DNA of 64,000 bases, taken from NCBI GenBank assembly GCA_030457805.1, contig JAKDUG010000001.1, forward strand, positions 30,487-94,486. The letters run 5' to 3'. Shown here piece by piece: positions 10,764 through 43,644 of this stretch (its first letter is position 1; each line of letters begins with the position of its first letter). The translations under genes and the position numbers were made by a program. The notes under the pieces were generated by a model. That model was not told the DNA's origin, made no database searches, and saw only the letters and a program-made list of their open reading frames with translations. This stretch comes from Psychroflexus sp. (GTDB lineage Bacteria > Bacteroidota > Bacteroidia > Flavobacteriales > Flavobacteriaceae).

Positions 10764-11768
10764 TTAATTGAGTGCCCAATCAAAATCAGATTTATTAACT
10801 GTCATAGAAAAATCATAGTTGAAATCGGGACTAGCTGTTTCACCTTCGATCTGCACATTATCCAAAGGGCCATTATCTCTCATATCAATCGTTGTTTCAT
10901 ATCCAGAAAGTGATAAACCTTGAATTGTTGCACCCGAATTTGCTTTAAACTGCAAGGCCGTCCCACCCACAGTTGACACAGCTGTAAAATTAATTAAACT
11001 AGGATTTCCATTAACGCCATCCGCTTCTAAAGCTGTTGAAAAATTAGCTTCTGTATGCGAAATATAGACATTTTCTAAAGTACCATTCCAGCCTTCCGTC
11101 CAATCTACAGCATCATCTTGTAAATTTTCTGCGTAAAAATTAGACACATGAGCTCGGCCTCCAAAAAACTCAATCCCATCATCTTGCCCTTCAATGATTG
11201 CCACATTATCGATCTGTGTGTTTTCCCCAACAGCATATAAAGTGAGACCATTAAATTGCGAATCTGCATTAATTTGAGCGCCTGTTTGCTTCATGACTAG
11301 GTATTGAATAGATCCAGAATCATCCTGATTATCATTCCCACCATAAAGAATACCACCGACCTCCGCGATTGCATTAACTCCTTCAGAAGTAACGCCTTTT
11401 CCTGCAATGACTAATCCGCCCCAACTCCCTGACCCAGATGGAGACATCACTACAGGCGCCGCTGGCGTGCCTTGAACCTGAATCTTCGCGCCTTGCTGAA
11501 CAACAAGATATACATCAGTTCCTGTACTTGTTGTAATACTTGTTCCTGCTGGAATAGTCAATATTGCGTTATTATCAACCGATAAGATGGATGATAATGT
11601 GTAAGCCTTTGACGGATCTAAAGTTAAATCGGACTTAATTTCTCCTGCTAGTTCCAACTCAGAGGTTGGGATCTCAGTAAGATCTTGATCGTCATCACTG
11701 CAACTTAATGTGGCTAAGGATAGCCCTAAAAAAATTAAAAAATTTCTTGTTGTTTTCATTGTTTTCAT
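10764..11768 (-). CDS. Surface lipoprotein, probable beta-helix, partner of the adjacent TonB-dependent receptor
   Basis: Lipobox LSC followed by acidic SDDD; repeating GSWGGLVIAG / NGLTLYAVG / DDGIEFFGG segments. Confidence 0.75.
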   Translation of the reverse strand: MKTMKTTRNFLIFLGLSLATLSCSDDDQDLTEIPTSELELAGEIKSDLTLDPSKAYTLSSILSVDNNAILTIPAGTSITTSTGTDVYLVVQQGAKIQVQGTPAAPVVMSPSGSGSWGGLVIAGKGVTSEGVNAIAEVGGILYGGNDNQDDSGSIQYLVMKQTGAQINADSQFNGLTLYAVGENTQIDNVAIIEGQDDGIEFFGGRAHVSNFYAENLQDDAVDWTEGWNGTLENVYISHTEANFSTALEADGVNGNPSLINFTAVSTVGGTALQFKANSGATIQGLSLSGYETTIDMRDNGPLDNVQIEGETASPDFNYDFSMTVNKSDFDWALN

Positions 11769-11784
11769 TGTTAAATAATTGATG

Positions 11785-14565
11785 TTAAAATTTGTATTTA
11801 AATTCTATGGAGAGCTGCATTCCTTTTGTATAAGATCTGACAGTTTCTTCTAAGGTTATACCACCATTCAGTGGCAGTATAAGTTGTGTGCGTTCTATTT
11901 TTGGATTGAGTAAATTTTTACCGATAAAACGAATAGAGATATTCTCATTAATTTCTTTACGAATGACTGCATCTAATGAAAGAAAGCCCTTTTCAATAAT
12001 TTCTTCATTAAAAAATTGGTGTGAAAGATCTTGGTTTTCAGGATTTCCTAAAGCAAAAATCTTGTCGGTCGTATAGTTTGCAGATATGTTGGCCACAAAT
12101 GGAAATTCTTGTGTTGTTTTGAAGGTTGTGTTTGCATTAAATACCCAATCTGAAGCTCCTTGCAAACCTGTTTTACTTTTGCCGTTGTATCGAAATGTTC
12201 TCAGGAGAAGATTCTCGTCATTCATCTCGCCATAAACTTCTTTCAGATCTTGTTCATGCCACATTCTCGTTGCATTGAGATTGAACTGAACTGCATAATC
12301 TAAATCTCTTTGACTTGAAACGATATCGAGTTTTGTATCAAATTCAACTCCGTAGACTTCAGCTTGGTCTCCTGAGTTGAAGTATGAAAATATCCCTGCT
12401 GCGCCTCGTGATAAAACACGGTTAATAGGATCATTAATCTGTTTGTAAAAACCTGCCACAGACAAAAGCTGACTGCTTGTCGGAAAGATTTCCCATTTCA
12501 AATCAATATTGTAATTTTCACTGGCCTGAATTTCTGGATTTCCCTTACTCACCTGACCATTCTGAGAGACATATTCAAAGGGAGATATTTCCTTAAACTC
12601 AGGTAGGGAAATTGTTTTACTCGCCGAAAGCTTGAGGTTATTCTTCTCGTTAATTGCATACTTTAAATTTAAACTCGGGAAAAAATTATCATAATTCTGA
12701 GTCGATAGGCCAGTTCTTCCTGGGTAATTATTGACATTAAAATCCACATTAATATCATCCTTCTGATAGCGTGCACCAACATTGAAATTCCACTTTTCAA
12801 TATGATAATTAAAGATGACATATCCCGAAAGACTCTTCAAGTCAGCATCATAAATATCAGGTTGAATTTGCCTGACGACAAGCGATCCATTCGCGATATT
12901 CCCTTGTGTAAAAACACCTGACAAATCATCAATTGAATTTGGGTTGAGGGTATTAACACGCGTTTCTTGCAAGCCATTAAATTGTGACAAAAAAGATCTG
13001 TCTTTATAGCGAAAGTTTGCACCTAAATCGACCAGCAATTGATTCTTATTATCTTTATTTTCTGAAGAACAGTTCAAACAAAAGGAATCATTAACGCGAC
13101 TATTAAATTCATAATCCTGGATATCTTGATTAGATTTACGCTGCTGAAAACCACCAGTTCTTCCTAATTCAACTCTGCTATTATTAAAGTTCAGTTCGTT
13201 TCTAATCCGGTTTGGTTCATCCGCATTGACTGTATTGAAACCCAATGCCCAATCAATTTTATGGCCTTTAAATTGATTCTCTCCGATCAATTGATTGATC
13301 CAAAGCTGTGTATTTTGAATATTCTGATCGCGTACAAATTGATTTAAGTCTGAATTTGGATCAACCTCATCAAAGACAATTCCTTCTCCGTTTCTTCCGG
13401 CTTCAAAAACACGCCCGTTTTGCTTGTTGACAAATAGACTTGCAAATCTGATGTGATTTTGATTGCCATAATCATATTGTAAATCTAGCAAGGCTGATGT
13501 CGTTACAGATTTAATAAACTCATCCACATCGGTAAAACGATCTCTAAAGTTATTGTTATCAAACTCCTGAAATGTACCTGATCTGTATTCGAAATCTGCT
13601 TTTTGCGAAGCAGTGACAAAGATTTTAAAATCATCAAAGCGTTTTCCTGCTGAAATATTATAAGCAAAATCAAGAGGTAAACTTTTATTTTGCGTATCCC
13701 AAGACTGCTCGGTCAGTGCTACTGAGTTAGACATTTTCTGGTTGTAAAAGCCGAAATTCATATGCTTATCAAAAGCTCCCAAACGAAATACATCTGCACC
13801 TAAAGCGCTTGTATTAAAACCAGTTTTAAGTCCCAACGCTAATTCCTCGGTCCCTGATAAGGCTTGAGAAATTATGTTAATATTACCCGATGCCTGATCC
13901 CCACTAAAGTTTGAAGTATAGGCCTTATTGATCTCAACACGCGCTACAACTCGCGTCGAAAACAATCCGAGATCAATGTTCTTGCGTTCTACATTATCAG
14001 AAGGAATAGGCAAACCATTGTATGTTGTTGTGAGATAGCGATCGCCAAGTCCTCTGATATAAAGATCGCCAGAACCCTCACTTGCCGTGACACCTGAAAT
14101 TTTTGTCGCAGCCACCGAAACATCTGAAACACCGAGTTTTGACAATTCAACGCCCCCAATACTTTCAGAGATGTTGACAGCAGTTTTTTGATCTAAAAGC
14201 AAAGCAACTTCAGCGTTTTTCCGCGCAACAGCAGTAATAATGATTTCATCTAGTTCAGCTGAATTTGTCGCTAAAGAGACATCAAGTGAAACATCATTTT
14301 TTGTAATTTCAACATCGGGAATTTCAACCGTCTCATAACCGACATAACTATACACAAGCGTATAAACCCCAGACTCTAAATTCTTAATTTTATAATAGCC
14401 TTCAAAATCTGAAGTGGCTCCAACACTCGAGCCTTTAACACTAATATTTGCAAAAGGCAATGGAGAGTTTCCCATATTCTGATCTAAAATCCTTCCCGAT
14501 AATGTGGTATTGCTTTGTGCATAACCCATTGTTGCAAAAAGAAATAAAATGTATGCTAACTTCAT
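11785..14565 (-). CDS. TonB-dependent receptor with N-terminal carboxypeptidase-regulatory-like domain
   Basis: Signal peptide MKLAYILFL (ATG 14565 preferred to the TTG at 14586), plug motif YIRGLGDRY...NGLPIPS, barrel, terminal YKF. Confidence 0.9.
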   Translation of the reverse strand: MKLAYILFLFATMGYAQSNTTLSGRILDQNMGNSPLPFANISVKGSSVGATSDFEGYYKIKNLESGVYTLVYSYVGYETVEIPDVEITKNDVSLDVSLATNSAELDEIIITAVARKNAEVALLLDQKTAVNISESIGGVELSKLGVSDVSVAATKISGVTASEGSGDLYIRGLGDRYLTTTYNGLPIPSDNVERKNIDLGLFSTRVVARVEINKAYTSNFSGDQASGNINIISQALSGTEELALGLKTGFNTSALGADVFRLGAFDKHMNFGFYNQKMSNSVALTEQSWDTQNKSLPLDFAYNISAGKRFDDFKIFVTASQKADFEYRSGTFQEFDNNNFRDRFTDVDEFIKSVTTSALLDLQYDYGNQNHIRFASLFVNKQNGRVFEAGRNGEGIVFDEVDPNSDLNQFVRDQNIQNTQLWINQLIGENQFKGHKIDWALGFNTVNADEPNRIRNELNFNNSRVELGRTGGFQQRKSNQDIQDYEFNSRVNDSFCLNCSSENKDNKNQLLVDLGANFRYKDRSFLSQFNGLQETRVNTLNPNSIDDLSGVFTQGNIANGSLVVRQIQPDIYDADLKSLSGYVIFNYHIEKWNFNVGARYQKDDINVDFNVNNYPGRTGLSTQNYDNFFPSLNLKYAINEKNNLKLSASKTISLPEFKEISPFEYVSQNGQVSKGNPEIQASENYNIDLKWEIFPTSSQLLSVAGFYKQINDPINRVLSRGAAGIFSYFNSGDQAEVYGVEFDTKLDIVSSQRDLDYAVQFNLNATRMWHEQDLKEVYGEMNDENLLLRTFRYNGKSKTGLQGASDWVFNANTTFKTTQEFPFVANISANYTTDKIFALGNPENQDLSHQFFNEEIIEKGFLSLDAVIRKEINENISIRFIGKNLLNPKIERTQLILPLNGGITLEETVRSYTKGMQLSIEFKYKF

Positions 14566-29718: not shown

Positions 29719-32399
29719 TTGCAAGTCAAATTTATTATTGTGCTCTTTTTCATAAGCTTTAGTGTGAGTCAGGTTTCTAGTCAAAACATTAACCTGAAGG
29801 GCTCCATCAAAGATTCTTTAGGTCAGGTTTTGCCAAACACCAATGTTCTCGCAAAACCTCTTACAAATGCAGCAGATTTTCAATTTGCTATTTCGGGAAC
29901 AGAAGGAAAATACTCACTTAAATTACAAAAGTCGCACAGCTATGAACTGAGTGTAACGCATCTTGGCTTTAATAAAATTGTAGATACGATTAGCCTGGAA
30001 GATGATACACAACGCAACTTCACACTTCAAAATAGTACTGAGCAACTGGATGAAGTTATCATAGAAACCGAAATGGCTGTCATCGTTAAAGAAGATACGA
30101 TTACATATCGTACTGATCAATTTAAAACAGGAGAAGAACGTAAATTACGAGATGTCTTAAAAAAATTACCTGGCATGAAAGTCGATCGTGCGGGCAATGT
30201 CACTGTCAACGGCAAACCTGTGACTAAACTGATGGTTGATGGTAAAGCTTTCTTTACAGGAGATGAAAAGTTGGCCGTTAATAATATTCCTGCTGATGCG
30301 ATAGGTGAGGTTGAAGCTTTAGATAATTATAGCGAAATTGCATTTTTAAAAGGGCTTGAAGACTCTAATCGAATGGCCTTAAATATCAAACTAAAAGAAG
30401 GTAAAAAACGTTTTTTGTTTGGAGATGTTGCTGCTGCGGGAGGGATAAAAAATAGATATAAACTCAATCCAACTCTTTTTTATTATAGCCCTAAAACAGC
30501 TGTCAATATTATCGGAGATTTAAATAACACAGGACAAAAGTCATTTACTTTTAAAGATTATATTGATTTTGAAGGCGGCTATGACAAGGCAACAAACTCA
30601 AATAATTTAAATTTAGTAAGAGATAATTTTTCACAATTTTTAAGACAAGATGATTTCAAATTTCAAAAGAATCAGTTTCTGGCAGGAAGTATTAGCCAAG
30701 AGTTAATCCCTTACTTAGAGTTCAACGCCTATAGTATTGTCAACAAGTCTTTGACTAGACGTGGAAAATCAACAAATCTAGATTACTTAAGTGATGTTGA
30801 GAATCAGGAAACACGTATGAATAGGAATCGAGAAGAATCTAATTTCAGTATTTCAAAGTTGAAGTTAGAATACGACAACCTGAGTTCGGTCAACTATAAA
30901 GCCAATACAATTATCAAAACCAGTGATGCCAACACTATTGAAGGTTTACAATCTGAAACCAATAACCGAGAAAATCTCAATTTAAGAACACAACAAACCC
31001 GAATAACTTCAGCTTATCACAAGAAATCTCAGCCAATAAACAATTCTCTTATACACATATAACAAGCATTAACGCCAAGTATGAGTACAACGATCAATCT
31101 AACCAACAAGATTGGGTTTTTAACCAACCTATTTTTTCAGAACTTATTCCTTTGGTGACGACTGTGGAAGACTTCAACTTGATTCAAGAAAGTAAAGAAG
31201 AGAATCATTTATTTCAACTCAACGCAAAGCATTATTGGGTTGTCAATGATTTTAATCATCTTTATCCTATAGCTGGCTACAATTATTTCAATACAAACTA
31301 CAGCACTTTAGACGCGCAACGTTTAAGCGATGGCAGCTTCAATAATTTTAAAAATACTGGCTTTAATAATCAAATTAATTACCAGCTTAATGATACCTAT
31401 GCTGGGTTAGAGTATAAATTTAAAAGCGGTCGATTTACAGGTAAACCAGCGTTTAAAATTCATCATTACAACTGGAATATCAAACAGTTTAACACACAAA
31501 TAGCCGACAAGCAGAAGTTCGTATTTTTACCCGCTATAAACTTAGATTACAAAGAAAAATCTGGCGGAAAATACAGTTTAATCTACGCTTTGAAATCAAA
31601 TTTTGCAAATGCCCAACAATATGCAAATCGATTGCGGTTATTATCTTTTAATCGTATATCACGTGGTGATGAGAATTTAGAAAATCAACTTTATCACCAA
31701 TTAAGCTTGCGATATTCTAAGTTTAGACTCAGTAAAAAACTAACTTTCAATACGTTCTTGAGTTTAAATATACAAGAACGCTCAATTAGACACCAGACAA
31801 AACTAGAAGGCATCGACCAAATTCAAGAATTATTTTATACAAGTTTACCTGAAAGATTTTTGATTTCAAATACCATGGTGAGTAAAGGTTGGGGCGATTG
31901 GTATCTGAATCTGAAATTAACAGGAATTCAAAATAATTACACCCGAATGATTAATGATGTGAGGACAGATTACACGTCTCATAACGTAGAATACACAATT
32001 AATACAAGTACTCAATTTAAAGATTTTCCTAATATAGATATTGGCTTTTCACAAGAATTTAATCGTTTAAAAGCGCTTGATTATGAAACTAATATCATGC
32101 AAATACAACCCTTTGCAACCTTAGAATATGATTTTTGGGAAGATTTCTTAGTCAAGTTTGATTATCGGCTGACCTATTTTGAAAATCAAAGCAATCATAC
32201 AGTTAACCGATTTGACATAGGAAATGCCAGCTTCGAGTATTGGAATCCTGACAAGGCTTGGCGAATTTCAATTGAAGCAACTAATATTTTTGACACAGGT
32301 TTTAAAAAGAAAAGTCATATCAATGAGTTTGTCATTACTGACCAACGCAATGCGATACAACCTAGAATTGTCTTATTAAAATTAACTTATAAGTTGTAA
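29719..32399 (+). pseudogene. Frameshifted carboxypeptidase-regulatory-domain outer-membrane beta-barrel protein (two ORFs, 29719-31062 and 31152-32399)
   Basis: N-half has DTITY, LKKLPG, NNIPADAI, MALNIKLK. The second frame is open from 30966 (TNPNNFSLSQEIS...) and ends KLTYKL. One base added near 30985-31000 joins the two frames. Confidence 0.8.
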
Positions 32400-36359: not shown

Positions 36360-37175
36360 CTAAACCTCTAAATCCGCAATAAGATCTTTAAATAGCTTAA
36401 TCATGTGAGGCTCAGCTTTGGCTGACATTTTTAAAATAGACTGTACATCAACTTGCGCTAAATGATCTGGATCACATTCATCAGTCAACACAGAAACAGC
36501 AATGACAGGAAGTTTTAAATGATTTGCAACAATGACTTCAGGCACTGTACTCATCCCAACTGCATCCGCCCCTATAATTTTCAAATAGCGATATTCAGCA
36601 CGTGTTTCAAGTTGAGGTCCCATCACAGAAGCATAAACACCTTTATGTAAAGTAATGTCATGGCGTTTGGCAATCGCTTCAAGCTTTTGACTCATTTTCT
36701 GATCATAAGGACAACTCATATCTACAAAACGTTCACCAGTTTTAGAGACACCTTTAAAAGCCAATGGCGATCCGCCAAGCAAATTTATATGATCATCAAT
36801 CAACATGATATCTCCTTTTTTGAAGTCTAAATTAATGGCGCCAGCTGCATTTGAAACCAATAGTTTTTTAATCCCCAAACGGTTCATGATCCGAACAGGA
36901 TAAGTCACATCTTGGAAATCATAACCTTCATAGAGGTGAAAACGCCCTTGCATGACAATGACTTTCTTCCCCTCTAACATTCCATAAATCAATTTCCCCT
37001 TGTGGAACTCGACTGTTGCCGTCGGGAAATGCGGAATATGGTTATAACTCACTTGCGCCAAAACCTCGACTTCTTCTGGAAGTTTACCTAAACCTGTTCC
37101 TAGAATAATGCCAACCTCAGGAGATTCAAATCCTTTCTCTCTTAAATAAGAGACTGTTTGTTCTACGTATGTCAT
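36360..37175 (-). CDS. punA: Purine-nucleoside phosphorylase (trimeric family)
   Basis: GIILGTGLG, QGRFHLYEG, VSNAAG, GPQLETRAE, GADAVGMSTVPE. Has TD where canonical PNP has TN. Confidence 0.9.
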   Translation of the reverse strand: MTYVEQTVSYLREKGFESPEVGIILGTGLGKLPEEVEVLAQVSYNHIPHFPTATVEFHKGKLIYGMLEGKKVIVMQGRFHLYEGYDFQDVTYPVRIMNRLGIKKLLVSNAAGAINLDFKKGDIMLIDDHINLLGGSPLAFKGVSKTGERFVDMSCPYDQKMSQKLEAIAKRHDITLHKGVYASVMGPQLETRAEYRYLKIIGADAVGMSTVPEVIVANHLKLPVIAVSVLTDECDPDHLAQVDVQSILKMSAKAEPHMIKLFKDLIADLEV

Positions 37176-37789
37176 TTGTGCTTTTTTAGTATTGTTTCAA
37201 AAATGGGGAGACCTTGAATATCTTCATAATAATCAACATCATTTCTCCGCTCTAAAATACTGATTTTTTCGGTTTTTAAGGCATGAATTGTCTCCATAAA
37301 AACGCTTGATGTGCTCCAAGCTTTCAATTGAAAAGCCGCTTTTTTTAATGTTTTCATGCCGAGCAAATAATAACCACCATCAGTAGCCGGGCCAATCACA
37401 AGATCGTGCGTGTTCAGTTTGTCAAAAGCCTCTTGAATGACACCTGCATCCAAATCATGAATATCGGTGCCAACAATAACGACTTTCTGAGCTCCAGCGG
37501 CAAAAGCAGAAGCAAAAGCATCTTGCATTTTCTGACCTAAATTCCCTTGCACTTGTTGTTTCTTCTCAAAAAAATCAGAAGACCACATATCATTTTGCCT
37601 CACTTCATCGGCATACCAAACTTGTCGAATGCTTTTGACATTTTTGACAACTTCTGCTGTGCGTTCTACTAAATACTTATAAATCTCTAGAGCCGCAGCA
37701 TCACCAACAGTTTTGGCCAAACGCGTTTTGCATTTCCCGAGTTCTGGATGTCGCGCAAAAATGAGCAATACGTTTTTCTCTTTAGTCAT
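37172..37789 (-). CDS. TIGR04282-family (arsenosugar/rSAM-associated) GT-A/CofC-like transferase
   Basis: IFARHPELGKCKTRLA, QGNLGQKM, IVGTDI, IGPATDGGYYLLG, WST, DVD. ATG 37789 preferred. Confidence 0.85.
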   Translation of the reverse strand: MTKEKNVLLIFARHPELGKCKTRLAKTVGDAAALEIYKYLVERTAEVVKNVKSIRQVWYADEVRQNDMWSSDFFEKKQQVQGNLGQKMQDAFASAFAAGAQKVVIVGTDIHDLDAGVIQEAFDKLNTHDLVIGPATDGGYYLLGMKTLKKAAFQLKAWSTSSVFMETIHALKTEKISILERRNDVDYYEDIQGLPIFETILKKHK

Positions 37790-38243
37790 AGACAGCTTCG
37801 GTTGTTGTGAGAAATTGCCCCCAATGGGAATTGTAAGCATGAACCTTCTGAGTAGGCAAACCAGACTTATTCACAAGTTGAAAACCCTGATCGGCCCATT
37901 GAAAAATGCCTCCGTAAAGATTTTTGAGTTGGCTATATCCAACTTTTTCAAGTTGATTCCCTATCCTTTCCGAACGCATCCCAAGTGAACAATAAAGAAC
38001 GAACTCGGTTCTTTTGGGAAAACGAATAATCAACTGCTGGATATCGAAGTTTTCAAAACCCACCCAAATAGCATTGGGTAAATGGCTGACGTCAAACTCA
38101 TTTTTCTCACGTGTATCTAAAAGAATGAAGTCGCTGTTTTGCGAGAGTTGCTTCTGCAAATCTTGAACAGAAAGATATGGGATTGAAGCTTTATTCTTTT
38201 GATCCAACAAATCCTTGATGGCTTGCAAATTAGATTTCGACAT
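37782..38243 (-). CDS. Single-domain rhodanese
   Basis: LLDTRE, EFDVSHLPNA, active-site loop YCSLGMRS, LYGGIFQW. Confidence 0.88.
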   Translation of the reverse strand: MSKSNLQAIKDLLDQKNKASIPYLSVQDLQKQLSQNSDFILLDTREKNEFDVSHLPNAIWVGFENFDIQQLIIRFPKRTEFVLYCSLGMRSERIGNQLEKVGYSQLKNLYGGIFQWADQGFQLVNKSGLPTQKVHAYNSHWGQFLTTTEAVYD

Positions 38244-38254
38244 GTGACAAAGAT

Positions 38255-39223
38255 TTAATGTGAAAGCTTTTGATGAGATTGATCTGTAGCCAGCACACCT
38301 TTTTTATCAAAAATAGCCTCTTTGTGGCATTTCATAAATTCATCGCAATACAAACATATATTTTTCAGATCAGCATTTTCAGCTTTGGCTTGCTCCTCAG
38401 AAACTCCTAAATGTTTTCCCATTTCCAAAGGCTTTCCTTCGTTGAGCATGCGGAAAACTAAATTTTCAGAAGCCCGCTCAAGCACATCGGCTACTTTTTC
38501 TTTCCGGGCATCTCCCATCGGGAAATGTGTACCAGGGCAACACGGATTGATGCGCCACAACTGGATACTGAATTCATTTGGAATGTCGCTATAACCGCCT
38601 AAAAAATTACGCGCACCAGAGAGGATATTACAAAAATTATGTTTGGGATCTTCCTTGTAAATATTATTTTTGAGCGCCTTGCCTCTCGCCCAATTCCCAC
38701 CGAGCCACATCTCTTCATTAGCGCCCCAAGATCCCCAACTCAAAGGATTTTCAGCAAGGTAATGTCCGCCTTCAATCAGTGGATCTTTTTCAGTCCCATT
38801 GACATCACAACTTTCAAAAATAGTAGCCAATTCATCGAGACGACTGCCTGCCTTTTTGTGATAGCGATCAATACTGGCAATATCAAAACGCCTCACTCCT
38901 TTTTCAATCAAGATTTGTAGTTTTTCTTTTGTGAGTAAATCGCCATTTGTCTGCAACATCACCTGCGTTTCCTCACCGTATTTTTCTTTAATTTTGTCTA
39001 AAATTGTGTAGAGTAATTTTAATTCTGAAAGCGGTTCGCCACCACTCAAAATCAAACGCTCAACGCGATCAGGCATATGATCGATAATAGCTAGACAATC
39101 CTGTTCGGAAATTCGTGCACCAAAAGGACTGGAATCATTATAGCAATGATCACAATCATCATTGCACAATTGTGTAAAAACCCAATAAAGAGACTCAACG
39201 TGATTAAAATCTTTTTTCATCAT
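38255..39223 (-). CDS. Radical SAM enzyme with a Cys-rich SPASM/twitch-like C-terminus, not ArsS
   Basis: CNDDCDHC (CxxxCxxC), LSGGEP, LQTNG, then C...CC...CLYC. ATG 39223 or 39220. Confidence 0.88.
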   Translation of the reverse strand: MMKKDFNHVESLYWVFTQLCNDDCDHCYNDSSPFGARISEQDCLAIIDHMPDRVERLILSGGEPLSELKLLYTILDKIKEKYGEETQVMLQTNGDLLTKEKLQILIEKGVRRFDIASIDRYHKKAGSRLDELATIFESCDVNGTEKDPLIEGGHYLAENPLSWGSWGANEEMWLGGNWARGKALKNNIYKEDPKHNFCNILSGARNFLGGYSDIPNEFSIQLWRINPCCPGTHFPMGDARKEKVADVLERASENLVFRMLNEGKPLEMGKHLGVSEEQAKAENADLKNICLYCDEFMKCHKEAIFDKKGVLATDQSHQKLSH

Positions 39224-39227
39224 TTGT

Positions 39228-39956
39228 TTATTTCGATTGCTGGATTTGCATCCAAAAATCAATTTCTTCTTTCACTCCTGATTGCGCATCCTGAATGAAT
39301 TCTGACTGACTCGTATATGTTTTTAAATAACCTTTATCAATTTTAGCGATTTGGTCACCGATAAGCAAGGCTTCTTTTAAATCATGTGTGACAAACAAAG
39401 CTGCAATGCCATAGGCTTTCATCAATTTCAAAAATAACTTTTGCATGGTTTCTCGCGTGTCAACATCAAGAGCGCCAAAAGGCTCATCGAGTAATAAAAC
39501 TTGGGGCTGAACAATGATGGCTCTTGCAAAAGCAACACGCTGTTTTTCGCCTCCAGACAATTGCTGTGGGAATTTAGAGGAATGTGCTGACAAATCAATT
39601 TCTTTTAAAATAGCTTTAACGCGCTTGTCGATTTCTGCAGCCTTTAATTGCTGCGCCTGCAATCCAAAAGCGATGTTGTCAAACACATTTAGATGTGGAA
39701 AAAGCAAGGCTTCCTGAAAGAGGTAAACAATATGTCGTGTATTCGGTTTTTGAGATATAATAGAAGTCTCATTCAAAAAGATGTTTCCTGTATCAGCATC
39801 TTCCAAACCAGCTATAATTTTGAGTAAACTGGTTTTGCCACTGCCAGATTTCCCTAAAATACTCATGACTTGATTGTCCTTTAACTCTAAATCAACAGCC
39901 GTGAGCACAGGTTTTTGTCCAAATCGTTTTGATATGTTTTGTAATTCTAAACGCAT
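39228..39956 (-). CDS. ABC importer ATPase, YnjD-like
   Basis: GKSGSGKT, LSGGE, LLDEPF, THD. Confidence 0.9.
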   Translation of the reverse strand: MRLELQNISKRFGQKPVLTAVDLELKDNQVMSILGKSGSGKTSLLKIIAGLEDADTGNIFLNETSIISQKPNTRHIVYLFQEALLFPHLNVFDNIAFGLQAQQLKAAEIDKRVKAILKEIDLSAHSSKFPQQLSGGEKQRVAFARAIIVQPQVLLLDEPFGALDVDTRETMQKLFLKLMKAYGIAALFVTHDLKEALLIGDQIAKIDKGYLKTYTSQSEFIQDAQSGVKEEIDFWMQIQQSK

Positions 39957-39965
39957 TCTTTTTAT

Positions 39966-40736
39966 TTAATGAATCAGGGTTCTTTTTAAGATAATTTTTT
40001 TGTTGAAAAACAGCAAAGTCATCGGCGGAATAACTAAAAGTAAACTCGCCAAAGCTGCTAAAAAAATATTGGCTTCATTGATAAAATTAAAAACAGATAA
40101 GGTTAAAGTTTTCACCTGCCCGCCACCAATCAGTTGTGTCAAACCATAATCAAACCAAGAAATCAAGAAACACTGAAAAAAGCACAAGCCTAAAACTGGT
40201 TTTGCCAAGGGAAAAATCACTTTTTTAAAACGAAACCATTCTGAAGAACCCAAGGTGATACTCAGTTCTTCATAATTTGAAATATGCCGTGTCCAAAAGC
40301 TGGATAAAATAATGAATCCAAACGGGAAGCAAATCAAAAATTGTGCGCTAACAACGCCAATAAAACTGGCATTTAATCCTATGACAACTGCAAAATAATG
40401 CCACAAAACGCCCAAGACAACAGGTGAAAGAATATATGGCAAGTACGCCAAACTGATATAATATTTCTTGTACCGCGAAGTAGAAACAGCTCTAGACAAT
40501 ATGCAACCCATTAAAGTTGAAAAAAAAGCGACACAAAGCGATACAACGATGGACAACCCCAAACTCTGCCTTAGTTCTGACTCTGTTGAAAACAATCTAA
40601 GCCAAGTCTGTCTATGAAAATTCTCAGGCAAAACATCTGGAAAAATCCAATGCTCACTAAAAGACAGAATAAGCAAAACTGCGACCGGCAAAAAAATAAC
40701 CGCAATCAAAAAGAAATGAACAATTCTTCTAAGCAT
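39966..40736 (-). CDS. ABC importer permease
   Basis: Hydrophobic; EAA-like EELSITLGSSEW loop. ATG 40736 overlaps the upstream stop. Confidence 0.85.
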   Translation of the reverse strand: MLRRIVHFFLIAVIFLPVAVLLILSFSEHWIFPDVLPENFHRQTWLRLFSTESELRQSLGLSIVVSLCVAFFSTLMGCILSRAVSTSRYKKYYISLAYLPYILSPVVLGVLWHYFAVVIGLNASFIGVVSAQFLICFPFGFIILSSFWTRHISNYEELSITLGSSEWFRFKKVIFPLAKPVLGLCFFQCFLISWFDYGLTQLIGGGQVKTLTLSVFNFINEANIFLAALASLLLVIPPMTLLFFNKKIILKRTLIH

Positions 40737-41598
40737 GAGTTTTCTTTTTAAAGAATTGAACAAAACGCGTCGACATCAAACTGATCAATAATAATACAAG
40801 AAATAAGTAAATGAGTGCCATCACATAAGCTTGTGGAATATCATGCAAATTAAAACGCTGTGCTTTATCGACAATCCGCGGGGTAATCATCTGCGGATTT
40901 TGGCGCCCTAAAAGCAAAGGCACTTCATAGCTACCCATCACGAAAATGATATAAAGCACGACTGTTGATTTTGATTTTTGCCATAATAATGCCAAGCTAA
41001 TCTTCCAAAATGCATGACGCGGTTTTGCTCCTAAACTCTGCGCGATCAATCCATAATCTTGAAGTCTTTCAGCATCGAAAATATTCTTGAGGAACAAGGT
41101 AAAGAAAGGAAAAACCAGCAAAACAGAAGTGAGCATAATGCCAATTCCGTAAGCGTCGTTCGTGAGTTCAGGAAAGCTTTCTATGTGGTCAATCCAACCA
41201 AATTGAAAACTGAGACGAGACAGAAATCCTGATTTTGAAAAGGTCTGCATGACATAAAAAGCCATGACAGTAGCTGGGAAACACAGAGGCAGAAAGAGCA
41301 AGCGATGAAACCACTTTTTCTGAAAATCATCAGTTAATTTTAAGACCAAAAAAAGCGCAATGCAAAAACTCAAAAACACACTGATGACAGCAATTAAAAA
41401 ACTAAACCCAATTGACTTCCACATATAGAAATCACGCAAAGCCTCTGACCAATATTTAAGCGTCAGCCCATCAGTTAGCAAACCTGTCAATCCTAAACTA
41501 TGTAACAAAGCATAAGTGAAACCAGCAAATGTTGGCACAACAATAAGTAGGACATAAATCAGCCTGAGGAATTTTGTCAATGAATTCGCTTTTCTCAC
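40729..41598 (-). CDS. ABC importer permease (YnjC-like half)
   Basis: Hydrophobic; AQSLGA loop, YEVPLLLG. Confidence 0.85.
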   Translation of the reverse strand: MRKANSLTKFLRLIYVLLIVVPTFAGFTYALLHSLGLTGLLTDGLTLKYWSEALRDFYMWKSIGFSFLIAVISVFLSFCIALFLVLKLTDDFQKKWFHRLLFLPLCFPATVMAFYVMQTFSKSGFLSRLSFQFGWIDHIESFPELTNDAYGIGIMLTSVLLVFPFFTLFLKNIFDAERLQDYGLIAQSLGAKPRHAFWKISLALLWQKSKSTVVLYIIFVMGSYEVPLLLGRQNPQMITPRIVDKAQRFNLHDIPQAYVMALIYLFLVLLLISLMSTRFVQFFKKKTHA

Positions 41599-42815
41599 TG
41601 TTGAAGTATTTTTTCTTGAAAATCATCAGCCAACCTAATCATGTATTCGGGAGCCAATTCTTGCAAGGCTTTTTTTTGGATCACTGATCGCGGTGGAGCG
41701 TTGGTCCGCATTCTTGTATTTTTCCATTTTTCCTGCATGGTTTCAGATAACTTTTCTGGACTCAAAACACTGCCGTCTCCCCAAACTTCAGGTTGCATTT
41801 TATGCAGTTGTGCTGCTGGTGAAATCATTTCATTGATGACCAACATGGCTGAATATTGATGCGCAGATTTTCGAGGAATTCCGAGGTAATGAGAATTCTG
41901 AATACTGCCAAAATCTGGTACATAGGCGCGGGCATCCTTTGTAAAAAGTCCTTCACTAATTTTGTTGTCCACTTCGGCATCGTTATTACTCATCGTAAAC
42001 CACAATTCGCCAGCGGCAAAAAGTTGATGCATCTGGGCCACGTCTTCAGGAAAAACCTCACCTTTTCGCCATAAATAAGATTTTAATTTATTGAGATAAG
42101 CAAACAAGTCTGCACTGAATTTTTCATATTTATCGGCATCAAAATCACCAGCAAGCTCTTCTTGCCCAGCTATATCAATCAGTAAGCTTTTCATAAAAGT
42201 CAATCCTGTAAAGTGATGATCAAAGGTGAACTTCCCTGGATGAGACTTTACAAAAGTCAATAATTCACTGCGTGTTTGCGGCAGATCTTGAACTTGATCA
42301 GAATTATAAATCAGTGTCATTTGGACATTTCCCCAAGGCATTTCATATCCTTCAATATCTTGTTGGAAATCTTTTCCAATAAAAGGATTATCAAAATCTA
42401 TCAATTTTGCATGAGGCGCTTTATCAATCCACGGACCAAACAAAGCATCAATTTGGCGCAACTGATAAAAGGTTTCGCCATTGATCCAAACCAAATCAAT
42501 TTGACTTTGATCAACGTCGGCCTGAATTTCATTCATTAAACTTTGAACAAGCGTATTGCCTTGTCCACTGACAATCTCAAGTTCTATATTGTATTTCTCT
42601 TTGACATGTGGTTTGATATAGTTTTGCATATAGGCGTTGATTTTCGGATCGCCTTTCCACATCATCATGCTGAGTTTTTGAGATTGTCCCTTTTCGACAA
42701 CCTGATCCCAACTCAACTGAGATAAATCAATGGCTTGAGGTTCCCGATCGGCTTGGCAAGCGACTAAGGAAAAGAGCAGAATTAAACGCGAAATATATTT
42801 TAGAATTCTCATCAT
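41595..42815 (-). CDS. ynjB: ABC substrate-binding lipoprotein, YnjB-like
   Basis: Lipobox LVAC, DLVWINGETF, PWGNVQ, FTGLTFMK, NSHYLGIP, VWGD, PEL pattern. Confidence 0.8.
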   Translation of the reverse strand: MMRILKYISRLILLFSLVACQADREPQAIDLSQLSWDQVVEKGQSQKLSMMMWKGDPKINAYMQNYIKPHVKEKYNIELEIVSGQGNTLVQSLMNEIQADVDQSQIDLVWINGETFYQLRQIDALFGPWIDKAPHAKLIDFDNPFIGKDFQQDIEGYEMPWGNVQMTLIYNSDQVQDLPQTRSELLTFVKSHPGKFTFDHHFTGLTFMKSLLIDIAGQEELAGDFDADKYEKFSADLFAYLNKLKSYLWRKGEVFPEDVAQMHQLFAAGELWFTMSNNDAEVDNKISEGLFTKDARAYVPDFGSIQNSHYLGIPRKSAHQYSAMLVINEMISPAAQLHKMQPEVWGDGSVLSPEKLSETMQEKWKNTRMRTNAPPRSVIQKKALQELAPEYMIRLADDFQEKILQQ

Positions 42816-42975
42816 CTATAAAGTTAGAAGTTTAGACCCAATTGAAATTGTTTATGAAAAATGGAGACTTAGTTGTTTTTGCACAGGCTAAATATAGCGT
42901 GCAAGAACACGATTAAATCTATTTTCAAGTCAAAATCAACAGGAAATAAACTTAAAAGAACAACTATAAACGGAT

Positions 42976-43644
42976 TTAAAGAGGAGAGCCTTTATTGTAA
43001 AAAGTCGCTTGATAAACTTTTGATCTTGGTAGAAATTGATCAATACTTGGATGCTGAGCAACGGCAATCATCGCAGATAAAAGCCGAATGATATCGCCTT
43101 TCAAGTCAGCTTGCTCAGATAAAACCAAAGGGACGTCTGACTTGAGATCAATATCAGAGAGTGTTTCTAAAAATGTATAATTTTCAGATTGATCTTTAAG
43201 CAAATTAGTGAATTCATCAAGTAGGGAAGAAGATTGCCAAGGGAGTTGAAGAAATTGCTCCTTCACAAAAGAAGAGCGATGCAAACCCCACAAATAAAAA
43301 CCGCCATCATGAGAAGGGCCAAAACACATGTCATGGGTTTTGAGACGATCAACTGTTTCATAAAGGTGATTTAAGTCGAGATGTGGAGAATCATTTCCGA
43401 TAGAAATAACGCTGTCGTATTTTGCTTCAAAAATAGCTTCAATAGCATTCAGGTAACGTTCAGCAAAGGTCTCACCGACTTGTTTTGACTCATCATAGCA
43501 AAAACAATGCAAACCAGAAGAAGCCAGTTGTTGTTTGATACGCTGGTTTTGGCGTCGAAAAAACTGTATACGCCCTTGCCCTAAATTCTTTTTTTCAACT
43601 TCAGGATTCTGGTAGAAAAATAAGATTGCAGTTGATGGCAGCAT
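42976..43644 (-). CDS. DUF2064 protein (second CofC-like GT-A paralog)
   Basis: GETFAER, IGNDSPHL, GPSHDGGFYLWG, LPWQ, LSDID; lacks the N-terminal KTRL. Confidence 0.8.
   Translation of the reverse strand: MLPSTAILFFYQNPEVEKKNLGQGRIQFFRRQNQRIKQQLASSGLHCFCYDESKQVGETFAERYLNAIEAIFEAKYDSVISIGNDSPHLDLNHLYETVDRLKTHDMCFGPSHDGGFYLWGLHRSSFVKEQFLQLPWQSSSLLDEFTNLLKDQSENYTFLETLSDIDLKSDVPLVLSEQADLKGDIIRLLSAMIAVAQHPSIDQFLPRSKVYQATFYNKGSPL

Follow-up and report, generated by a model that had tools for sequence, protein, structure and literature searches.

Which molecule is acted on by a radical S-adenosylmethionine (SAM) protein of an orphan family, whose gene in one Psychroflexus genome stands exactly where another genome of the genus carries ArsS and ArsM? 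We addressed this question in a stretch of 64,000 nucleotides from Psychroflexus sp. (GenBank assembly GCA_030457805.1, contig JAKDUG010000001.1, positions 30,487 to 94,486 of the forward strand), hereafter called the window. The gene occupies positions 38255..39223 of the window on the (-) strand and, judged from its open reading frame (ORF), profiles, homologues and a structural model, encodes a 322-aa member of an orphan twitch-type family. Its main distinguishing feature is its operon together with a swap against ArsS/ArsM: the cassette replaces ArsS/ArsM in position, the two exclude each other across genomes, and the co-occurrence of the enzyme with TIGR04282 is complete. The reading that we put first, although we hold it with a little less than even confidence, is that an uncharacterised radical SAM enzyme acts on an imported small molecule and that its cassette is an alternative to ArsM/ArsS, in some genomes together with TIGR04169.

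The swap was read from a genome of the same genus that lacks the enzyme (G136) and whose DNA is collinear with that of the window from GreA to the ActA cytochrome gene, purine nucleoside phosphorylase (PNP) included. Both sequences share a frame with a DUF2064 paralogue on one side and a rhodanese, a TIGR04282-family gene and PNP on the other. In the slot between the DUF2064 paralogue and the rhodanese (locus L096 (G136:C12), 11268-14442), G136 carries a TIGR04169 peroxidase-like gene (185 bits), ArsS (447 bits against a cut-off of 300) and an arsenosugar-type ArsM (563 bits against a cut-off of 400), and the exact equivalent of this slot in the window holds an importer and the radical SAM enzyme. 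The genus is polymorphic for which radical SAM module occupies the slot, and profile searches found no ArsS, ArsM, TIGR04169, TIGR04283 or DUF547 anywhere in the Psychroflexus sp. genome. Nine co-oriented genes that abut or overlap make up slot and frame in the window, from the DUF2064 paralogue through the radical SAM gene to PNP; they are listed here in the order of transcription, together with one gene remnant:

42976..43644, (-): DUF2064 paralogue, under the TIGR04282 cut-off (94.8 bits against 134)
42822..42866, (-): remnant of the 3' end of a TonB-dependent receptor gene (...KQFQLGLNF, then stop), recognised by comparison with other loci
41595..42815, (-): lipoprotein substrate-binding protein of the YnjB family (NF008633, 359 bits against a cut-off of 203)
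40729..41598, (-): permease 1 of an ATP-binding cassette (ABC) transporter, YnjC-like (profiles, locus comparison)
39966..40763, (-): ABC permease 2, YnjC-like (profiles, locus comparison)
39228..39956, (-): ABC transporter ATPase, YnjD-like (profiles), with its stop codon 4 nt before the radical SAM start
38255..39223, (-): radical SAM gene, the subject of this study
37782..38243, (-): rhodanese NF045521 'rhoda_near_glyco' (179 bits against 145), in the frame common to ArsS clusters
37172..37840, (-): TIGR04282-family CofC-like transferase (203 bits against 134), likely start Met at ORF residue 18
36360..37175, (-): PNP (profile search), last gene of the co-oriented block

A second, independent swap was found in another family between two congeneric genomes, G202 and G142, whose flanks are 74-75% identical in DNA. 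In G202, DUF2064, a receptor, the importer and the radical SAM enzyme follow the TIGR04283/TIGR04282 and DUF547 genes; in the same slot, G142 has a TIGR04169-like gene and ArsS. Genome counts, which were uncorrected for phylogeny, covered 26 genomes carrying the enzyme and a sample of 251 Bacteroidota genomes: ArsS was present in none of the 26 carriers versus 88 genomes of the sample (35%), and a TIGR04282 match was present in all 26 carriers (25 above the cut-off) versus 147 sample genomes above the cut-off. The enzyme itself occurred in 5/251 sampled genomes (2%), and a second DUF2064 match was found in all five of these carriers versus 12 of the 246 others. Cultured strains that carry the enzyme include P. 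halocasei DSM 23581, Aequorivita echinoideorum JCM 30378, Marivirga atlantica SM1354 and Phaeodactylibacter xiamenensis KD52. Read from coordinates, ArsS lies no more than about 2.5 kb from TIGR04282 in roughly two-thirds of the ArsS genomes compared, and the radical SAM enzyme stands at that position in the window.

The enzyme that fills the slot is not ArsS, as the preliminary description of the sequence had already argued from its lack of a DUF3641-type tail. The ArsS model TIGR04167 reached 20 bits (cut-off 300) and matched only N-terminal positions 6-102, an hhalign comparison of the two family alignments covered the N-terminal core alone (residues 16-124, probability 92%), and the ArsS-type C-terminal Cys-rich tail was absent by both the Pfam scan and hhalign. 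Because only this core is shared, the swap is best described as replacement by a non-homologous enzyme rather than by a divergent ArsS. What the two modules have in common is the slot beside TIGR04282-family genes in congeneric genomes, where ArsS stands with a TIGR04169 or TIGR04169-like gene, with or without ArsM, and the same accessory set (TIGR04282, TIGR04283, DUF547, PNP and the NF045521 rhodanese). On the other hand, ArsS is not coupled to an importer, and the radical SAM enzyme studied here is much rarer in Bacteroidota.

The rhodanese, a Pyr_redox_2 protein and some family names suggested a selenium pathway, but SelD was above its cut-off in only 11 of the 26 carriers, which makes a general selenophosphate-dependent role unlikely, and it was absent from the Psychroflexus sp. 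genome. An apparent selenoprotein variant in G124 was also rejected, the in-frame TGA being a true stop codon.

Translation of the window gives an uninterrupted 322-aa frame at 38255-39223. Translation probably begins with the ATG at 39223 and not with a TTG at 39262, because the longer frame would run into the ATPase gene upstream and because homologues begin MKKDF or MK.DF. The features of the protein, all on the (-) strand and mapped by translated coordinates unless another basis is given, are as follows:

39143..39166, (-): CX3CX2C motif CNDDCDHC, residues 20-27 (C20, C24, C27), site of the SAM-cleaving 4Fe-4S cluster
39032-39043, (-): GGEP, residues 61-64
38942-38950, (-): TNG, residues 92-94
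38681..38740, (-): aromatic and Gly-rich segment SWGSWGANEEMWLGGNWARG, residues 162-181, on and after strand beta5 (conservation, model)
38324..38638, (-): twitch-like C-terminal domain with C198, E217, C228, C229 and C290xxC293 (homologues, EpeE alignment, model)
38537-38542, (-): Cys228-Cys229
38345-38356, (-): Cys290-x2-Cys293

Residue conservation was counted over 82 aligned members of the family. C20, C24 and C27, the radical SAM cysteines, were each kept in all 82, and GGEP (61-64) and QTNG (91-94) were conserved across the alignment, so that the core motifs named in the preliminary description are all in place. The C-terminal cysteines, which had been proposed there as sufficient for an auxiliary cluster, were conserved to nearly the same degree (C198 and C228 in 82/82, C229 and C290 in 81/82, C293 in 80/80 aligned), and all five were still present in relatives at 22-27% identity; their placement also fits a twitch domain. 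E217 was kept in 81 of the 82 members. Cys139 and a further C-terminal cysteine, Cys299, were not conserved. The pattern of motifs and cysteines is real and far beyond chance, and the gene showed a ratio of nonsynonymous to synonymous substitution rates (dN/dS) of about 0.05 against Psychroflexus halocasei.

Pfam assigned the protein to Radical_SAM (PF04055; 54 bits, cut-off 29.5 bits), and no NCBIfam model claimed it among the 25 best of 47 matches, which were all at or below 41 bits. The best of these, NirJ, a tungsten-cofactor maturase, AhbD, HxsC, viperin and MoaA, covered the N-terminal ~120 residues only, at ~40 bits against cut-offs of 180-650. The statement that the protein could not be placed in a characterised subfamily is borne out by these scores; neither membership of a characterised family nor loss of the C-terminal cysteines was found. 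A search of 5.8 billion proteins recovered 1,288 homologues, over 1,200 of them at 55-90% identity and from several phyla, with identities of 66-90% across Flavobacteriales, Saprospiraceae and Cytophagales; among the 120 homologues listed, the source names were 'radical SAM protein', 'organic radical activating enzyme' and 'hypothetical protein' only. The family is tight, since only some two dozen of the 50%-cluster representatives passed an E-value of 1e-30. By sequence, it is a radical SAM family without a characterised member, strongly conserved and under selection.

Beyond the N-terminal core, one solved enzyme resembles the family along its length. In a comparison of the family profile with PDB sequences, the single full-length match was EpeE/YydG, the peptide epimerase of Bacillus subtilis (PDB 8AI1-8AI6; TIGR04078), with an E-value of 6e-16 over residues 9-298, and every other match was limited to the N-terminal part. 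An AlphaFold model, a step suggested by the preliminary description, had a mean predicted local distance difference test (pLDDT) score of 89 and a predicted template modelling (pTM) score of 0.89. All top Foldseek matches of this model were radical SAM enzymes, consistent with a partial TIM-barrel fold, and the closest were twitch enzymes, namely EpeE with a template modelling (TM) score of 0.55-0.6 and then BtrN. In the model, C198 precedes a beta-hairpin (217-226), C228 and C229 follow just after it, and C290xxC293 lies in helix 289-299, the last long helix; one Cys before the hairpin, one after it and a CxxC in the last helix is what we take to be the one-cluster twitch arrangement. The seven-Cys SPASM class (CX9-15GX4C ... 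CX2CX5CX3C ... C) was rejected, as only five C-terminal cysteines are conserved and their spacing differs, and the Pfam scan of the protein gave no SPASM (PF13186) match. The protein is very probably a real radical SAM enzyme with two clusters, the SAM-cleaving 4Fe-4S cluster and a predicted auxiliary 4Fe-4S cluster in the twitch domain, for which C198, C228, C290 and C293 are the candidate ligands.

The remaining conserved residues of this domain can be compared with EpeE position by position, as the numbering of the EpeE chain was fixed by the sequence of a D210A mutant in the PDB match. EpeE Cys223, the second Cys of its PCC motif, aligns with C229, and EpeE Asp210 aligns with E217, so that C229 and E217 are the putative equivalents of this pair. 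In EpeE, Cys223 gives a hydrogen atom to the substrate radical (PMC13012085), and it has been proposed that the auxiliary cluster reduces the resulting thiyl radical, with Asp210 supplying a proton (PMC13012085). In both enzymes, an extended twitch domain with a single auxiliary 4Fe-4S cluster (predicted in the enzyme here) comes after the radical SAM core. Also conserved here are the PCC motif, the second Cys of which donates hydrogen in EpeE, and an acidic residue 12-13 positions upstream (PMC13012085). The two enzymes differ in that their identity is only ~17%, EpeE lacks the conserved Trp-rich beta5 segment, and the locus here has no precursor peptide, peptidase or exporter and encodes an import operon instead. 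TIGR04078 (cut-off 300 bits) was absent among the 25 best of the 47 NCBIfam matches, and distant homologues that bridge both families scored best against the YydG model at 46-82 bits, far below that cut-off. The enzyme is thus like EpeE in architecture and catalytic residues, yet outside the EpeE family. BtrN, a twitch radical SAM dehydrogenase (PDB 4M7T), is similar in fold (TM 0.46-0.59) and presumably has the same topology of auxiliary cysteines, with a Cys before the hairpin, a Cys after it and a CxxC in the C-terminal helix, but it shares 16% identity, has a shorter chain and serves antibiotic biosynthesis, where its substrate is an aminocyclitol, without an importer context.

The Trp- and Gly-rich segment that the preliminary description had singled out, SWGSWGANEEMWLGGNWARG, proved to be conserved across the 82 members: position 163 is always W, Y or F, W166 is W in 69 and F in 12 of them, W173 is kept in 81/82, and W178 and R180 are invariant (82/82 each). 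In the model, residues 162-165 of this segment form strand beta5 of the core and a loop follows; model confidence here was moderate (block means 57-85). Radical SAM enzymes usually touch the adenine of SAM at beta5, and this site borders a lateral opening toward the twitch domain. Some of the aromatic residues may consequently serve SAM binding rather than line a pocket for a cationic or methylated substrate, the role that the preliminary description had suggested for the four Trp residues. The context of ArsS replacement makes a methylated substrate plausible without showing it.

The surroundings of the gene were compared over 80 related loci from Bacteroidota, Verrucomicrobiota, Ignavibacteria/Kapaibacterium and Balneola. 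An ABC ATPase lies directly upstream of the radical SAM gene in 69 of these loci, a YnjB-type binding protein is present in 62, and in 47, including that of P. halocasei, a TonB-dependent receptor of ~995 aa precedes the binding protein. In the window this receptor has been deleted, with its last codons surviving in the 160-nt gap at 42816-42975; since the genome holds no second copy of that receptor type either, another outer-membrane route may serve the cassette. Elsewhere in the window, at 29719-32399, two ORFs of 447 and 415 aa are the parts of a split outer-membrane barrel or CarboxypepD_reg-type gene, which looks like a broken receptor gene; it has no relation to the cassette. A riboswitch search over the window and five related loci gave no Rfam match at the gathering score.

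Several of the recurrent neighbours would be suited to handling a nucleoside. PNP, of which the window copy at 36360..37175 is the sole one found in the genome, adjoins in 10 loci. In seven loci, the ATPase and the enzyme are separated by genes for a nucleoside hydrolase and for an MtnK-like kinase of the S-methyl-5-thioribose kinase family (L090, 6078-7996, for example). The member in L094 (4615-7740), which is 39% identical and has no importer, also adjoins a nucleoside hydrolase, DUF547 and an APH-type (MtnK-like) kinase. Such a hydrolase and kinase would together match the job of PNP, the conversion of a 5'-modified nucleoside into a 5-modified ribose 1-phosphate. In two Flavobacteriaceae loci, a gene for an ArsM-like methyltransferase of 252-269 aa lies directly upstream of the enzyme (L013, 7240-7998; L021, 7190-7999); its best match was the arsenite methyltransferase NF008823 at 181-198 bits, under the 263-bit cut-off, and in both loci it ends 2 nt before the radical SAM start, which mirrors the ArsM-ArsS pairing. 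TIGR04283 or DUF547 genes were found nearby in loci of Flavobacteriales, Chitinophagales and Verrucomicrobiota, the loci concerned including L013, L021, L070, L073, L078 and L097.

Apart from these genes, two adjacent, highly conserved proteins of ~215 aa accompany the cassette in 15-19 loci of Bacteroidota and Verrucomicrobiota (for example, L013, 5970-7233, and L061, 8939-10211); the pair is absent from the Psychroflexus sp. genome. Neither gave a Pfam, NCBIfam or PDB sequence match. One of them has a fold like ThuA and class I glutamine amidotransferases, which pointed to no substrate, and contains an invariant His/Cys-rich motif with the consensus HACWHTHG, which suggests a metal site.

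From these neighbours a route can be proposed. The cassette, in the order of (TonB-dependent receptor), YnjB-type binding protein, two permeases, ATPase and radical SAM enzyme, would bring a small molecule into the cytoplasm, where the radical SAM enzyme would act on it. We consider it probable that the enzyme acts on what the importer delivers, and somewhat less firmly so that it is an alternative input to the ArsS-type pathway. By adenosylation, ArsS converts dimethylarsenite into 5'-deoxy-5'-dimethylarsinoyladenosine (PMC13598754). In an ArsS-like manner, the enzyme would direct the 5'-deoxyadenosyl radical derived from SAM at a heteroatom compound taken up by the importer, perhaps an arsenical that already carries methyl groups, and would yield a 5'-substituted 5'-deoxyadenosine. 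This nucleoside would be cleaved by PNP, or in other lineages by the nucleoside hydrolase and MtnK-like kinase, and then handed to the TIGR04282/TIGR04283 transferases. Holding the substrate or relaying an electron and a proton would fall to Cys229, Glu217 and the auxiliary cluster. To become an activated 5-substituted ribose and then a glycoside, a 5'-substituted adenosine would require PNP or the hydrolase-kinase pair, a CofC-like protein of nucleotidyltransferase fold and a family 2 glycosyltransferase, and we favour adenosyl transfer because the recurring partners fit such processing; as a statement on the chemistry it is tentative and more doubtful than the import step. An already methylated import would also explain the joint loss of ArsM and ArsS in Psychroflexus. 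The stronger version, in which the enzyme is a second, independently evolved former of C-As (or C-heteroatom) bonds that replaces ArsS non-homologously and holds in a Trp-rich pocket a pre-methylated or onium substrate, actively imported by a dedicated TonB receptor and a YnjBCD-type ABC system, as the preliminary description had imagined for its four Trp residues, is doubtful.

A number of observations weigh against this reading, beginning with genome counts that are uncorrected for phylogeny. TIGR04282 occurs without either radical SAM enzyme in 54 of the 251 sampled genomes, so that the downstream TIGR04282 genes do not depend on either of them; these 54 include the majority of genomes in the genus to which the Balneola locus L052 belongs. 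TIGR04282 is adjacent to the cassette in only about a third of the 26 carriers. No solved or characterised relative of the binding protein was found by sequence. EpeE, the closest mechanistic model, abstracts and returns hydrogen and transfers no adenosyl group, and the conserved EpeE-type Cys and acid would fit an epimerase or lyase at least as well. ArsS itself could have stayed if only the import of methylated arsenicals had been needed, and the uptake of a toxic metalloid via a TonB receptor would have no obvious advantage.

The EpeE resemblance in particular leads to the alternative that survives best, although we regard it as rather unlikely: the enzyme would perform EpeE-like hydrogen-atom chemistry in the salvage of an imported ribosyl or nucleoside compound, such as an arsenosugar-type or other 5'-modified nucleoside from algae, and salvage would replace de novo synthesis by ArsM/ArsS. 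After hydrogen abstraction, Cys229 would return a hydrogen to the other face (epimerisation) or after bond cleavage, and the thiyl radical would be reset by the auxiliary cluster and Glu217. EpeE is the best match of the enzyme in both full-length profile and fold, the bridging homologues lean toward YydG while staying under its cut-off, and the Cys/acid pair, each member of which is kept in 81/82, fits such chemistry better than adenosyl transfer; the TonB receptor suggests a larger or scarce substrate, and a nucleoside hydrolase and kinase within the cassette fit an imported nucleoside. Against it, the L094 member has the hydrolase and kinase without an importer, which leaves the source of the nucleoside unclear, salvage gives no evident task to the ArsM-like methyltransferase that adjoins the enzyme in L013 and L021, and at such low identity to EpeE the PCC motif may persist for structural reasons.

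It is quite unlikely that the link to arsenosugars is a coincidence, with a self-contained uptake-and-modification cassette for an unrelated nutrient (a vitamin precursor, a sulfur compound or a metallophore) inserting at a recombination-prone locus. Roughly two-thirds of the 26 carriers have their above-cut-off TIGR04282 gene away from the cassette, the 54 sampled genomes with TIGR04282 and neither enzyme agree with this view, and the patchy presence of the cassette is as expected of a mobile accessory operon; the YnjBCD genes of Escherichia coli, too, adjoin a rhodanese gene, YnjE, and are not known to have a link to arsenic. Such an accident is difficult to reconcile, however, with two independent and precise swaps with ArsS cassettes, with the absence of ArsS and the presence of a TIGR04282 match in every carrier, with the way in which members of one gene set recur as neighbours in three phyla, or with an importer-less member at 39% identity that adjoins DUF547, a kinase and a hydrolase.

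A maturase that modifies a ribosomal peptide or a cassette protein, such as the binding protein before its export, is very improbable: the closest solved relatives (EpeE, CteB, SkfB, SuiB and TigE) do modify peptides, but no conserved small ORF was found within 3 kb of the enzyme in 76 loci, where recurring short ORFs were fragments or shadows of known genes and a precursor of a ribosomally synthesised and post-translationally modified peptide was ruled out on this ground, the abutting genes leave no room for one, the Pfam scan showed no peptidase or leader-recognition domain, and the transporter is an importer rather than a peptide exporter because it has a lipoprotein binding protein.

The combination of a transporter with a cytoplasmic radical SAM enzyme that acts on the imported molecule, as in the uptake reading preferred here, has parallels. 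In queuine salvage, a nucleoside hydrolase is paired with a radical SAM enzyme (PMC11130926), namely the nucleosidase QueK and the lyase QueL, and the pathway resembles the cassette in its transporter. The enzyme here is related to these proteins only at the level of the superfamily, and no match to a QueK/QueL model was obtained, so that this identity was rejected. Anaerobic heme uptake loci with ChuW/HutW likewise combine a transporter with a radical SAM enzyme; the relation is again that of the superfamily, and neither these nor the queuine enzymes were among the NCBIfam matches of the protein. In the literature, we found nothing on DUF2064 and nothing that joins YnjB with a radical SAM enzyme, and mentions of YnjBCD were incidental only. 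The present analysis contributes the two swaps seen in place, the counts on exclusion of ArsS and co-occurrence with TIGR04282, the finding that homology to ArsS ends with the core, and the assignment of EpeE catalytic residues to positions in the enzyme.

To our knowledge, ArsM/ArsS is the only known entry to arsenosugar biosynthesis, and the cassette looks like a drop-in alternative to it. Of the 251 sampled genomes, 59 carry TIGR04282 but no ArsS. The label 'arsenosugar biosynthesis glycosyltransferase' of that family may therefore be too broad, or there may be a third input module. If the proposed role is true, the cassette would provide a second route into the arsenosugar pathway, via new carbon-heteroatom chemistry or via salvage, and would link the orphan YnjBCD transporter family to a substrate class, its first substrate. 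If the enzyme does stand in for ArsS, many Bacteroidota, Verrucomicrobiota and their relatives would scavenge organoarsenicals, or an analogue, for arsenosugar-type conjugates, which would bear on the cycling of organoarsenic compounds by marine and soil bacteria.

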